This document shows positions 43,870 to 62,453 of a stretch of DNA of 64,000 nt, piece by piece. Origin of the DNA: Schmidtea polychroa (taxonomy: Eukaryota); the NCBI GenBank assembly GCA_044892525.1, contig CM097885.1, positions 70,742,001 to 70,806,000 of the forward strand. The letters run 5' to 3'. The translations under genes and the position numbers were made by a program. How positions within the stretch are numbered: the first letter of the stretch is position 1; every line of letters begins with the position of its first letter. Below the pieces are notes generated by a model. It ran no database searches, was not told the DNA's origin, and saw nothing but the letters and a program-made list of their open reading frames with translations.

Positions 43870-46800
43870 TGTTGGGCTAGAACTGATTTCTGAACCCAAA
43901 GTTAGGAATGGGACGAAATGTGTCAGTACACAACACGCATACCCAGCATTAAGTTTACTTAAATAAAAATGTATAAAACACCAAGTAAACAATGATAATA
44001 GAGAGATAATATACCCAAAAATAAAACATCTGAATTAAAAATAAAATAAAACACGAGCAAGAAGTATTACACGAAAACTTACTCAAATATAACCGAAAGA
44101 CATAAAACAACAAAAAAACAAATTCAAATAAAGGCGATTAGTAAAAATTAAAAAAAAAATTAAAGAAAATCTTCATAAAATCTTACGTAAAGAAAATTAT
44201 ATCGATATTTTGAATAAAAATCCAGAACAATTCATAAAAATGGCGAAATCCATCATGACCGCCAAACAACCCAATAAAATTTATAAAAAATAAATATCTT
44301 AGTTTAAAAAAGAAAAAGTTTAGAAAAGAAATCATAAAAAACAATTTAAAAATAAGAAATAGATTAAATTTAGCATGGAATGTTCTGAAAATGCTGAAAT
44401 CCATCATGGAGGCAAATTTAATAAAAAATAATTCAAAAACAAAATTCCATAAATAAAAACAAAAATTCTTACTGAAAAATCGCCATCAAAATCGATAAAA
44501 ATTAAAAATCGAATGTTCGAGAATTAAAATAATCTGAATTTGTTTTACTGCATCAATGCACGCATGTATACTTACACGTCAAACAGAGGCTATATAAACT
44601 AACACATTTCGTCACTTTTTAAGGGAAAAAAATGCAAATGAATATTTTTACTCTTATGCCAAATTTTTGGTTTTGATTTTTCTGAGATTGTAGGTAAGGA
44701 CGATTTCATTGTGAATTATAAATTATTATTATTGAAACTTTGTTTTCATTATTTTTTTTAACTATAGAAATGTAGGTTTGAGTGAGATCGTCGGTTATCA
44801 TTGATTTTGAAGCGAGATCCCAGCCAACCCTGCACCTATGCACTTTATCATCGATGAGTAAACAGCCCACAATGATTGCAGGCCACTGCCTGGCACGCAC
44901 TTATCAATATTATTGGTTTTTCTTGTTCAGGTCATTCGGAGGTCACACCACTTCATGGTTCTGCCATGGAGTTAAGTCGATGAAATCCTTCGTCTGACTC
45001 TACCTATTTATTATAGGTCAGCCGTAAAGGGTTGACTTACCACACAACAGTAAAGTTTGTCGTAGTGGTCACAGTGGGGCCGCGAAAGCAAACACTCTTC
45101 CCGACTTTCAATGCATGAATAATTTACATAGTTAAAATCTACATCCAAAATCATCACAATACAATACACTAAGGTTAATAAACAGAGTAGATCTCAGACC
45201 TAAATTAATCACAACTCTACAATTCACAATTAATGTAGACGGTTAAATATCATCAACAACCAACTCTACATATACGTTTATCGAATCTAGATTTATAAAT
45301 GTCTTAAATAAATTTTCTAGTAATAGTGTAAAGTAAAGATTTTTTAAAAATGATTGATTTAGTAGTGATAGTATTCATAAAGGTGTTCGACATGCGTATC
45401 AGCAAGACTTGGATTTTAAATTGAATAGACTCCAAACTAACTATAAAAATACAAATCGTAAACCCATAAAAGTATAAATTATAAAATTATATTAGCTTTA
45501 AAATATAAACTATAAATTTAACTTAACTTCATAAAATATAAATTATAAACTTAAAAGTATAAATTATAAAATTATATTAGCTTTAGAAATATAAACTATA
45601 AATTTAACTTCATAAAAATATAAATTATAAACTTATATTAGCTGAAAGACTATAAATTATAATCTTAATTTGGTCATAAAAGTATAAAATATAAACTACG
45701 TTAGCGATAAAAATATAATCTATACTAAGTTGTAAATATTTTATAAATACCCCCCCCCCGAGTTACGTAATCGTCGAAACAAATGTTCAAATTCATAATC
45801 TAACTTATATATGTATATTTGAAACTTATAAAAGTATAACTTACCTTTTTCATAAGTACCCCCCTCAAACTATACATTATTCGAGAACAATATATATAGC
45901 AATAAATTAACTTATATATGTGCAGTTATCAAACTTAATAATTCCTCAGGTCACCTAACCATTAATTGTTGTCTAAATACATTAATACCTTACCTTTACG
46001 ATATAAATTTAGAAAATTTCAATAAATGACCCCCCCTTAATTCATATAACCATTAACCACTACCTGATACACTAATTTAGACTATTTAATATATATATAC
46101 TTAACTTAGATTACCTTTAAAATTATAGTTGAAAAATTTTCATCAAAGACCCCCATAAACCATATAGTCATCCCCTACCAACTAAATATACTAAATTAGC
46201 TTATTTTAATACATATTTAACTTATATTATATTTTAAAATGTAAATTGTAAATTTTTATGAATGACCCCCCTCAAAATCATATAGTCATCAACTACCACC
46301 TAAATATACTAAATTAGCTTATCTTAATATATATTTAACTTATATTATATTTAAAACTATAAATTGTACATTTTCATAAATGACCCCTCCCCCCATAGGT
46401 ATCTTAAAAAAAATATAAATTTACATTTATTATTATTNNNNNNNNNNNNNNNNNNNNNNNNNNNNNNNNNNNNNNNNNNNNNNNNNNNNNNNNNNNNNNN
46501 NNNNNNNNNNNNNNNNNNNNNNNNNNNNNNNNNNNNNNNNNNNNNNNNNNNNNNNNNNNNNNNNNNNNNNNNNNNNNNNNNNNNNNNNNNNNNNNNNNNN
46601 NNNNNNNNNNNNACATTATCACTCTTATTATTATTATTATTACTATTATCATTATTATTATTATTATATTATTAAAATAATTATCTTTATTTCATGGAAA
46701 TAAAATTATAAAACAAATTATTGATTTTGGGATTCCCCTATCTCTAAATTTAGTTTCAATGACCCTATCTTCCAATAAAATTTTAGAAAACCACTAAAAT

Positions 46801-48340
46801 CTATTTTTAGTAACAGCCCCCCCCCAGAAAACGACGACACAATTAATAATTTAAATTAAATAAATATATAAATATGTATGTATGTGTATGTATATATAGA
46901 TTTATAAAATAACCTTATAAAAATATAACCACCGTTCCCCCTAAAGACCGCAAGTTGTATAATAATAAGAATAAAGGTTATTGCTAGTCGTCCTATAATC
47001 CTAAAAATTTTTATAATTTTGCATGTGTTATTATTATTACCCTAGTGCTATTATTATTACTACGATTATTATTATCATTATTATTATTATTACTATTATT
47101 ATTATTACTGCTATCAATGTTATTATTATTATTATAAATAGCATAAAAAAGAGAAAAAAAAATAACTAAACAAAATAGGAACTTTTATTGTGCAAATTGT
47201 TCGTTTTGAGAGCCGATAAAATTCCAATAATTCACCTTTTCCTGAAAAGTTTGCTAGGTAGTTTATACCCGTGTGCTCCGACTAGCGCTTCTATTTCAGG
47301 TTTAAATCGTTTTCAGTTGTAAACTTTCCGTTTAAATATCTAAAAATAAGCATTTTAATAAAATAAATTACCCTCCAATTCGAAAAATGGTGATTAAACC
47401 ACTCATGACGAGTACAACTGAGGGATAAGCAAGTAACACGAGTGGCTAGGCTCGTCACTAATACTTATCACCCCAGTGTACCCGAATTTAGTGGTAATAT
47501 CCGATTCATTGGTTTAATCCTGAAAAATAAAAAAAAATATATATATATATATATTAAATTTCAAATTACCACCCAGTGGTAAACAAGATTTTAGATTAAA
47601 ATAGTTAACTTAAACAAAGTTAATTAATAATGTAATTTGAAAAGATCAACGTTTTTTGTATGTTTTTGAAGCAATAGTGAAGACATGAAATTGAATGTTT
47701 TCTCTAAATTTCTAGGGGATAATGCCTCATCAGGGTCGATATTTCGTTAAAAATTAAATTAATTAACAGCCAAATTAGGCATTTAAAAACTAATTGACGA
47801 AAACGAGGATCGAGAATGCAGTAAATTTAAATAGAGTATGTTGGATGTTTGAACGTGATTAAAACCGAATCGAATACACCCAGATAATCCGGCAAGCTCA
47901 CGGACGGGAATAGATGGGCGTATACAGGTGTATGAAGAGATGGATGGGGAGGCGAATACCTATGTGTGTACACGCGTACAGGGATATGTATGAAATGGAG
48001 TGTGAGTAACGACAACGGGAAATCGATGAATAAAGAAAACGTGGTTTTGTATTTTAAAGGAAATAAATATAAATGGAACGACACTCAATCGGTAGGAATA
48101 GATGGGGACCTGAATAAGAAATCGGACATAAGCCTTCTATCGGCAGTCCGTGAACCCCAATGGGTGCTAGACAATTATAGTATGCTAAGCATGCTCACTT
48201 TTTGCTAGTACTCAAACCCTTGATACAGTACCAACGTTGATTGCTCAAAGGGTATTAAGTGGTCAGCTGTCAATTGTATTCTGGGTTACGCTGGAAACAG
48301 CACGAGTAGGTGGAAACTTTGGATTACCTGTAACCCACCA
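43870..48340 (+). repeat. 5' LTR of element 2 (4,471 bp including a 175-N gap)
   Basis: About 99% similar to 57990-62453 by eye (roughly 30 differences). Confidence 0.95.
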
Positions 48341-60900: not shown

Positions 60901-62453
60901 AAAACCACTAAAATCTATTTTTAGTAACAGCCCCCCCCAGAAAACGACGACACAATTAATAATTTAAATTAAATAAATATATAAATATGTATGTATGTGT
61001 ATGTATATATAGATTTATAAAATAACCTTATAAAAATATAACCACCGTTCCCCCTAAAGACCGCAAGTTGTATAATAATAAGAATTAAGGTTATTGCTAG
61101 TCGTCCTATAATCCTAAAAATTTTTATAATTTTGCATGTGTTATTATTATTACCCTAGTGCTATTATTATTACTACGATTATTATTATCATTATTATTAT
61201 TATTACTATTATTATTATTACTGCTATCAATGTTATTATTATTATTATAAATAGCATAAAAAAGAGAAAAAAAAATAACTAAACAAAATAGGAACTTTTA
61301 TTGTGCAAATTGTTCGTTTTGAGAGCCGATAAAATTCCAATAATTCACCTTTTCCTGAAAAGTTTGCTAGGTAGTTTATACCCGTGTGCTCCGACTAGCG
61401 CTTCTATTTCAGGTTTAAATCGTTTTCAGTTGTAAACTTTCCGTTTAAATATCTAAAAATAAGCATTTTAATAAAATAAATTACCCTCCAATTCGAAAAA
61501 TGGTGATTAAACCACTCATGACGAGTACAACTGAGGGATAAGCAAGTAACACGAGTGGCTAGGCTCGTCACTAATACTTATCACCCCAGTGTACCCGAAT
61601 TTAGTGGTAATATCCGATTCATTGGTTTAATCCTGAAAAATAAAAAAATATATATATATATATATATTAAATTTTAAATTACCACCCAGTGGTAAACAAG
61701 ATTTTAGATTAAAATAGTTAACTTAAACAAAGTTAATTAATAATGTAATTTGAAAAGATCAACGTTTTTTGTATGTTTTTGAAGCAATAGTGAAGACATG
61801 AAATTGAATGTTTTCTCTAAATTTCTAGGGGATAATGCATCATCAGGATCGATATTTCGTTAAAAATTAAATTAATTAACAGCCAAATTAGGCATTTAAA
61901 AACTAATTGACGAAAACGAGGATCGAGAATGCAGTAAATTTAAATAGAGTATGTTGGATGTTTGAACGTGATTAAAACCGAATCGAATACACCCAGATAA
62001 TCCGGCAAGCTCACGGACGGGAATAGATGGGCGTATACAGGTGTATGAAGAGATGGATGGGGAGGTGAATACCTATGTGTGTACACGCGTACAGGGATAT
62101 GTATGAAATGGAGTGTGAGTAACGACAACGGGAAATCGATGAATAAAGAAAACGTGGTTTTGTATTTTAAAGGAAATAAATATAAATGGAACGACACTCA
62201 ATCGGTAGGAATAGATGGGGACCTGAATAAGAAATCGGACATAAGCCTTCTATCGGCAGTCCGTGAACCCCAATGGGTGCTAGACAATTATAGTATGCTA
62301 AGCATGCTCACTTTTTGCTAGTACTCAAACCCTTGATACAGTACCAACGTTGATTGCTCAAAGGGTATTAAGTGGTCAGCTGTCAATTGTATTCTGGGTT
62401 ACGCTGGAAACAGCACGAGTAGGTGGAAACTTTGGATTACCTGTAACCCACCA
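57990..62453 (+). repeat. 3' LTR of element 2 (4,464 bp including a 175-N gap)
   Basis: Direct repeat of 43870-48340, followed by TSD GCCG. Confidence 0.95.

Follow-up and report, generated by a model that had tools for sequence, protein, structure and literature searches.

A satellite family without pol and env in Schmidtea polychroa, probably spread by the enzymes of a Burro-like giant gypsy element

The DNA analysed here, called the window, is a stretch of 64,000 nucleotides from Schmidtea polychroa (GenBank assembly GCA_044892525.1, contig CM097885.1, forward-strand positions 70,742,001 to 70,806,000). Its positions 43870-62453 are occupied by an 18,584-bp retroelement with long terminal repeats (LTRs), which belongs to a family of about 110 copies without pol and env, here called the satellite. 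Members of this family have one structure and were inserted separately, they have the same cis-acting ends as an autonomous 35-kb gypsy element (the helper), their capsid is under purifying selection, and a segment of their 5' leader is homogenised with that of the helper. Comparison of the sequences makes it quite probable that the satellite originated by in-frame deletion of a Burro-like 35-kb gypsy element, and that it spreads with enzymes borrowed from the helper in common particles.

The first-pass annotation of the window had described a pol-less element with Gag fused to a receptor-like membrane protein, and had pointed out that it would be a simple deletion derivative if most of its relatives carried pol. 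When the 781-Mb genome is searched with the ectodomain of the membrane protein, 134 of 485 candidate matches are scored. Of these, 110 are 90-100% identical to the query and none lies in a frame longer than 1587 aa, while the other 24 are 61-62% identical and 14 of them lie in longer frames, of up to 4812 aa. With the Gag linker as query, 108 of 150 scored matches are at least 89% identical and the remainder 82-83%. Copies of intermediate identity are found neither among the 134 ectodomain matches nor among the 150 linker matches. The set examined further consists of 102 copies, namely 97 of the 110 ectodomain matches and five found by the linker alone; outside it are six matches on small contigs, six tandem partners and one fragment.

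Not one of the 102 copies matches the pol and env part of the helper (aa 961-4164), and one in-frame junction is common to 101 of them, the remaining copy being truncated. The exact 20-mer of this junction occurs 111 times in the genome and a control pattern does not occur at all. Five of the five other satellite copies checked, and six of six with the window copy, have 4-bp target-site duplications (TSDs) of their own, and the LTR pairs of those five are 98.6-99.9% alike over the 3.2-3.8 kb fetched. From the absence of pol in all examined copies, the common junction and the separate TSDs it follows that the loss of pol is a trait of the family and that the insertions postdate this loss. The unbroken satellite open reading frame (ORF) has 1572 aa and encodes Gag, a linker and the membrane protein.

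Two of the 61% ectodomain matches belong to elements of 35.2 and 35.6 kb; their LTRs are 5 kb long, and the ORFs have 4778 and 4791 aa. The scanned helper ORF encodes Gag, MATH, a Monjiviricetes-type fusion protein, protease (PR), reverse transcriptase (RT), RNase H (RH), integrase (IN) and ankyrin; the fusion protein (PF24664, E 1.6e-68) lies in frame upstream of PR, and TRAF and BIR-RING ORFs are situated downstream of ORF1. Counted by a helper-type Gag 20-mer, there are about 258 helper copies. Satellite and helper are alike in their LTR ends, in the primer binding site (PBS) with its 8-nt spacer, in a motif ahead of the 3' LTR and in TSD length, and the interiors of their LTRs are 67-81% alike, in patches only. 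The autonomous partner suggested as the thing to look for, one sharing LTR ends and tRNA-Pro PBS with the satellite, accordingly exists.

The satellite ORF corresponds, in frame, to helper aa 1-960 (71% identical), a MATH remnant of about 25 aa, and helper aa ~4180-4778 (57%). A second deletion takes most of the downstream accessory genes, and the RING ORF of the leader has decayed. The membrane protein is the last ~600 aa of the helper polyprotein, a module of signal peptide, ectodomain and transmembrane (TM) helix. Since the satellite ORF is colinear with that of the helper and the deletions are in frame, this protein was inherited from the helper and not captured. The earlier picture of a satellite-like element borrowing Pol stands in so far as there is a non-autonomous family that keeps Gag and a partner that could supply the rest; the membrane protein, being the C-terminal module of the helper joined to Gag by in-frame deletions, is no special cargo of the satellite. 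Hydropathy of helper ORF1 (L012-L013) gives signal peptides at aa 1884-1902 and 4280-4298 and TM helices at aa 2461-2481 and 4668-4686, a predicted topology that would be consistent with two ectodomains and, between them, the enzymes facing the cytosol.

The window copy has the following parts.

43866-43869, plus strand: left TSD, GCCG, 4 bp (compare the empty-site paralog at 63570-63615)
43870-48340, plus strand: 5' LTR, 4471 bp, TG...CA, with terminal 22 and 11 nt as in the helper LTR
48349-48366, plus strand: PBS for tRNA-Pro(TGG), 8 nt behind the LTR; PBS and spacer as in the helper
49150-49625 (approximate), plus strand: what is left of the 160-aa RING-finger ORF in the helper's leader, decayed by two stops and two frameshifts
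49755-49756, plus strand: point at which the window copy lacks a leader segment of ~1.27 kb, the island
49773-50286, plus strand: tandem repeats of 140 bp, situated at the island's 3' edge and 84-91% alike to those of the helper
51036-52301, plus strand: Gag, its capsid at ~51495-51968, with zinc knuckles; the first ATG is at 51378, and the window copy is frameshifted near 52,280
52265-53932, plus strand: third zinc knuckle and long linker with candidate protease motifs, colinear with helper aa ~394-960
53933-54022, plus strand: family-defining junction of helper aa ~960, a ~25-aa MATH remnant (helper ~1243-1268) and helper aa ~4180
54290-54361, plus strand: predicted internal signal peptide (hydropathy)
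54386-54850, plus strand: four-cysteine repeats 1 and 2, no confident fold
54995-55252, plus strand: four-cysteine repeat 3, a predicted seven-strand immunoglobulin (Ig)-like beta-sandwich
55463-55525, plus strand: predicted TM helix
55558-55788, plus strand: cytoplasmic tail; its EYG and EEYEAI motifs lie out of frame in the window copy
56408-57455, plus strand: decayed remnants, the start of the helper TRAF ORF and the end of the helper's last accessory ORF
57949-57989, plus strand: pre-LTR motif, a short inverted repeat and a G/C run, matching that of the helper
57990-62453, plus strand: 3' LTR, 4464 bp
62454-62457, plus strand: right TSD, GCCG

All the hallmarks of an LTR retrotransposon, paired TG...CA LTRs, PBS and TSD, are present here, as was noticed from the letters alone. 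The two giant LTRs are about 99.4% identical with masked N stretches excluded, the PBS is the exact complement of the 3' end plus CCA of this genome's own tRNA-Pro(TGG), and a copy of the target survives uninterrupted at 63570-63615. A short stretch of host DNA is duplicated locally (43072-43869, 62454-63615); the insertion is in one of its units, and the neighbouring unit still has the empty target site. A classic polypurine tract is not found at the pre-LTR motif. The 3' part of the LTR (47,400-48,340) is only about 76-79% alike to that of five other satellite copies and 93-99% alike to many LTR ends at dispersed sites (39 other rows of the 40 scored); from this split it follows that the family has at least two types of LTR. 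A solo LTR of the satellite family with its own 4-bp TSD (ATTG) lies at 35022-40339, plus strand. The 3' pattern of tRNA-Pro has about 2,160 matches in the genome, and those listed sit in a tandem array with a period of 475 bp (G000:C1:130.90-130.95 Mb, L103, and elsewhere).

In the coding part, the Gag ORF at 51036-52301 passes by way of the first frameshift into an ORF of 1141 aa at 52265-55690, much as first described. Pfam finds Ty3_capsid (E 5e-6), Retrotrans_gag and zf-CCHC in these two long ORFs and nothing else, so no PR, RT, RH or IN; a six-frame listing gives no further long plus-strand ORF in the element, and helper aa 961-4164 has zero matches to it by tblastn. At the junction about 9.7 kb of the helper is gone, with MATH, env, PR, RT, RH, IN and ankyrin, and the remnants at 56408-57455 surround the second large deletion, of about 6 kb. 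With env and pol both absent, the element is a derivative of a Burro-like element and not a full member. The signal peptide, the three four-cysteine spacings and the TM helix are where the first reading had placed them, and its tyrosine motif in the tail, EEYEAI (55615-55632), is in frame in unbroken copies; in the window copy it is out of frame because of a second frameshift, near 55,555. Damaged by two frameshifts and the missing island, the window copy is probably a dead-end member of its family.

About 100 open codons precede the first Gag AUG both in the satellite (window ~51036-51377) and in the helper (L012 2107-2416); they are 58% identical, with a ratio of nonsynonymous to synonymous divergence (dN/dS) of 0.40, which hints at a non-AUG start or a spliced leader. 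The motif IN[ML][ML], a pattern picked only after seeing the data, occurs twice in the satellite linker (52430-53050; 0.08 expected) and four times in the helper Gag linker (aa 449, 474, 524 and 655; 0.27 expected), and may mark protease sites.

Consider now the 5' leader. Over an island of about 1.2 kb, which lies 1.8-2.7 kb behind the LTR, satellites and helpers are 95-100% identical, while the flanks are mostly 65-80% alike and the likeness elsewhere is about 75%. Of 51 satellite loci, 46 have the island. The five without it are four 5'-truncated loci and the window copy. In the 3' half of the island (450 bp; 46 satellites and 12 helpers) the mean distance is 0.040; no difference is fixed, 11 polymorphic columns are common to both families, and three helpers nest within the satellites. 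The 5' half (350 bp) has three fixed differences and seven shared columns. For comparison, the start of Gag differs between satellite and helper by a distance of 0.241 with 79 fixed differences, and the synonymous divergence (dS) from the present helper in the coding region is about 0.6-1.5. From alleles in common across a synonymous divergence near one it follows that exchange between satellite and helper has been recent, and it is likely to have concerned the island. Template switching in co-packaged RNA is the route that we infer for it, and the island may be a packaging signal. The island is GC-rich and internally repeated, with folding z values of -1.8 to -3.0 in its core windows; Rfam gives one chance match to it (E 0.55).

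An island 20-mer occurs 388 times in the genome, close to the 111+258 occurrences of the junction and helper Gag words. At G000:C1:39.42-39.47 Mb four island words lie 15.8 kb apart, one of them adjoining a helper-type Gag word and none a satellite junction; a different deletion form may be arrayed here in tandem. Two further ideas were discarded. The window copy does not represent a state before the island, as the 5' part of the segment that it misses is as diverged from the helper as the flanks are, and L083 and L092 are not helper-satellite chimeras, being closer to the helper along their whole length.

Selection was assessed in 92 near-complete satellite copies, the 10 truncated ones being dropped from the 102, and the frame is open in 47 of them. 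Private variants are neutral, with a dN/dS of 0.94 and 33 stops where 38.6 are expected. Among variants common to at least three copies, the capsid has a dN/dS of 0.38, the linker 0.57-0.86 and the part from the signal peptide onward 1.3, and two stops are seen where 21.0 are expected. The capsid of the satellite is therefore under purifying selection. The helper ectodomain, by comparison, is conserved (dN/dS ~0.13-0.14; pairwise 0.13), and the shared nonsynonymous and synonymous changes in the ectodomain number 13:33 in 12 helpers versus 59:23 in satellites (p=2e-6). A clade of five satellite copies has a stop in the ectodomain, four of the five being frameshifted near codon 500 as well, and another four loci, on different branches, have one frameshifting ectodomain deletion in common. 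Since lineages broken in these ways have spread, only capsid and nucleocapsid look needed in cis. The membrane protein is dispensable in cis and under no net amino-acid constraint in the satellite; it is likely to matter to the helper and to be a largely relaxed passenger in the satellite.

When did the divergence between the two arise? The leader RING remnant differs from the helper by a dN of 0.17-0.19 at a dS of 1.5-1.9, and the kept regions have a dN/dS of 0.1-0.3. With dN this low in relation to dS, most of the divergence accumulated under selection, while the RING ORF still functioned, and likely in an autonomous sister lineage. On these comparisons the satellite is likely to have arisen late in such a lineage, which this assembly was not found to contain, and to have taken the present helper as its partner afterwards.

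The mechanism proposed for its spread is as follows. RNA driven by the 5' LTR would be translated as Gag, linker, signal peptide, ectodomain and TM helix, after which signal peptidase would release the membrane protein and helper protease would trim Gag. Satellite Gag would preferentially coat its own RNA, and it is by this proposed preference that the capsid would remain under selection. Satellite Gag and RNA would co-assemble with helper Gag-Pol, from which PR, RT and IN are borrowed, with the island serving as packaging or dimerisation signal. Reverse transcription would be primed by tRNA-Pro, template switches in mixed RNA dimers would hold the island matched to that of the helper, and helper integrase would insert the DNA with a 4-bp TSD.

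Several observations weigh against this scheme. Outside the core, the windows of the island are no more stably folded than shuffled sequence (z 0 to -1.3). The window copy lacks the island in spite of its TSD and matched LTRs, so that either the island was lost during or after the last insertion or it is not strictly required. The counts of variants ignore recombination and recurrent mutation. The four-copy lineage broken near codon 500 has multiplied all the same, which also disposes of the thought that Gag is anchored only if translation continues as far as the signal peptide. As to the membrane protein, shared stops beyond the nucleocapsid are depleted (2 versus 17.5 expected, p=4e-6), and shared changes from the signal peptide on avoid the sites at which satellite and helper are identical (p=0.012, computed after dropping changes toward the helper's residue). 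For these two reasons the label passenger is too simple.

There is a real possibility, though not a probability, that the island is instead a promoter or enhancer, or an element of translation (internal ribosome entry site, splicing or control of a non-AUG start), kept alike by gene conversion at the DNA level together with strong selection. Such a function would leave the satellite-helper pair unchanged and is compatible with the rest of the proposed scheme. The distance of 1.8-2.7 kb from the LTR is far for a classical packaging signal, both families have the open codons before the first AUG, and the window copy was integrated though it has no island. To this may be added that, as far as the available part of the source goes, homogenisation in grass pararetroviruses did not track the landmarks of reverse transcription (PMC5491270). 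A packaging role is favoured by the GC-rich, partly structured and internally repeated nature of the island and by the fact that its loss is private to the window copy among 40 scored matches; moreover, the satellite copies are mosaics of one another in the ORF as well, just as template switching predicts.

The depletion of stops and the avoidance of helper-identical sites would also be expected if the membrane protein were useful to the satellite, for attachment or as a decoy on particles or cells, with the dN/dS above one reflecting diversifying selection. Both deletions preserve the frame, about half of the copies are open as given above, and the 12 cysteines of the ectodomain are without any shared change, an observation of low power. 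All the same we consider this explanation unlikely: the clade with the ectodomain stop and the four loci with the shared deletion still spread, shared stops counted from the signal peptide on are two where 6.0 are expected (p=0.06), the constraint is far weaker than in the helper, and the fusion protein is gone from the satellite.

Very unlikely is a mover other than the present helper, be it a sister Burro lineage absent from the assembly or a different gypsy family, with likeness to the helper reflecting shared ancestry. The large coding dS and the patchy likeness of the LTR interiors would fit such a mover; the lack of intermediate copies among the scored matches, island alleles intermixed with those of the present helper, and the different LTR ends and PBS of the other gypsy element in the window (element 1, below) speak against it. 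Multiplication of a dead deletion derivative by segmental duplication only, of which the few copies in tandem pairs ~16 kb apart or in near-identical pairs might be reminiscent, can practically be dismissed, being refuted by the distinct TSDs in six of six full copies with their young LTR pairs and opposed by the purifying selection on shared capsid variants.

For the ectodomain, an FN3-like (fibronectin type III) character had been read from its strands. AlphaFold2 on a seven-row alignment resolves repeat 3 alone, with seven strands at a confidence score (pLDDT) of 60-87, while repeats 1-2 stay at 33, so that a definable fold is predicted for one part of the ectodomain and not for the other. 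The best structural match of repeat 3 is a designed Ig domain (Z 9.1, root-mean-square deviation (rmsd) 2.5, 71 aligned), and its matches to FN3-bearing chains (Z 6.7-6.9) are within the common background. The fn3 profile matches none of the three repeats at E up to 10. Repeat 3 is thus modelled as an Ig-like sandwich, a general likeness in which the earlier reading survives, and FN3 identity is unproven. Profile comparison among the three repeats gives probabilities of 0.2-10%, so their mutual homology rests on cysteine spacing. No protein homologue outside this genome is found among longer proteins (350 candidates), a search of Atlas with the ectodomain gives no usable match, and Foldseek finds nothing in the PDB at E<=0.001. 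Three matches in a representative library (E 3e-8 to 4e-4) were rejected as ankyrin-repeat proteins with a chance motif, and a single viral structural match for its rmsd of 30. In one run (X1), the RNA status of which is a guess, a contig of 1380 nt extends across the junction and the ectodomain; the single run recorded as RNA (X9) bears a different organism label, and its 0 reads carry no weight.

Element 1, at window positions 5250-20058, is a separate gypsy family with 1.06-kb LTRs and another PBS. Its order is Gag, Monjiviricetes-type env, PR, RT, RH and IN, followed by signal peptide, ectodomain and TM helix, and the genome contains about 150 matches to it, of which several lie in frames of ~3,370 aa. 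Its ectodomain may be of FN3 type (Atlas 0.94 with 172 features; Pfam fn3 E 0.13). The parallel drawn earlier between the two elements holds for the layout, with a signal peptide, ectodomain and TM helix after integrase; it does not extend to sequence, as no similarity is found between the two ectodomains, and the family of element 1 encodes pol and env. Elsewhere in the window are what we take, by eye, to be a hAT-like C-terminal fragment (57-629), RING/TRAF-like ORFs (1596-3065) and a minus-strand remnant of a piggyBac-like transposase (23358-24683).

Planarian Burro (GYPSM1) is described as longer than 30 kb, with one ORF1 of ~4,800-5,100 aa and a CCHC-knuckle Gag; its mononegavirus-type env lies in frame after gag and before PR, and its accessory domains include MATH, ankyrin and BIR. 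Domains like BCL2, dUTPase and ubiquitin are ascribed to it also, by HHpred (available part of PMC6431247). In S. mediterranea, BURRO1 RNA is reported to rise when PIWI is knocked down (PMC8532177). In helper ORF1, Pfam gives no match to BCL2 or dUTPase and a weak one to UBXL (E 0.04). The helper resembles Burro, by description, in size, length of ORF1, position of env, MATH, ankyrin and BIR, and the window family is colinear yet without env, pol and accessory genes. The available part of PMC6431247 mentions neither a Gag-keeping non-autonomous Burro family nor a second, post-integrase protein with signal peptide, Ig-like domain and TM helix. In the literature searched, to which Grohme et al. 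2018, extended data and Repbase did not belong, no non-autonomous Burro family and no FN3/Ig-like membrane protein in a gypsy polyprotein is reported.

Among known dependents, TR-GAG elements of plants are shorter than 4 kb, with LTRs, a PBS and a single ORF for a Gag precursor, have no pol and are apparently mobile; for TR-GAG1 an autonomous partner was not found (PMC4350172, as far as available). The satellite is like them in being an LTR element with a PBS, one Gag-including ORF and no pol, and apparently still mobile. It differs in that the window element is 18,584 bp long, that the ORF is not Gag alone but continues for ~1,100 aa, with a membrane protein at the end, and that its partner is identified. 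LARD elements exceed 4 kb and have lost their coding regions, and BARE-2 has no Gag and keeps pol (same part of PMC4350172). By length the window element would pass for a LARD; the satellite is not one since it is coding, with open ORFs in half of its near-complete copies and a selected capsid. What it has in common with LARD, BARE-2, Dasheng and RIRE2 is that a large non-autonomous LTR element leans on a partner. Sequence exchange between partners reportedly has precedents in Dasheng and RIRE2 and in the LTR swapping of soybean (said to be the work of Jiang, 2002, and Du, 2010). In the satellite-helper pair, in contrast, the LTR interiors are not homogenised and an internal leader island is. 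In non-autonomous grass pararetroviruses, according to the available part of PMC5491270, region-specific recombination homogenises a non-coding regulatory segment with the helper while coding sequence diverges. The likeness is that one non-coding segment is kept alike between dependent and helper; those viruses are episomal and of plants, whereas the satellite is an LTR element of an animal, primed by tRNA-Pro and integrated with TSDs. Since dependents with Gag only and recombination with a partner are known in plants, the kind of system is not new.

That Burro-type giants are proviruses is put forward as a hypothesis in the available part of PMC6431247. One may go further, in a speculation that we hold to be improbable, and regard them as endogenous viruses with two glycoproteins, the fusion protein and an Ig-like surface protein cut from the far end of the polyprotein. 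The family would then be a defective-interfering satellite that contributes capsid and second glycoprotein, has polymerase and fusogen from the helper, renews its packaging signal by recombination with it, and could travel between cells in helper particles.

By the present analysis the receptor-like protein fused to Gag is reduced to a module inherited from the helper; the interest now lies in the well-defined satellite-helper pair, its island and the second membrane protein. The comparison exposes this second membrane protein of the helper, which is under purifying selection and is not listed in the available part of PMC6431247. The satellite is a natural deletion experiment, which separates what is needed in cis (LTR ends, PBS, capsid-nucleocapsid and probably the island) from what can be borrowed, and the homogenised island provides a concrete 1.2-kb candidate for the packaging signal of a giant env-bearing element.

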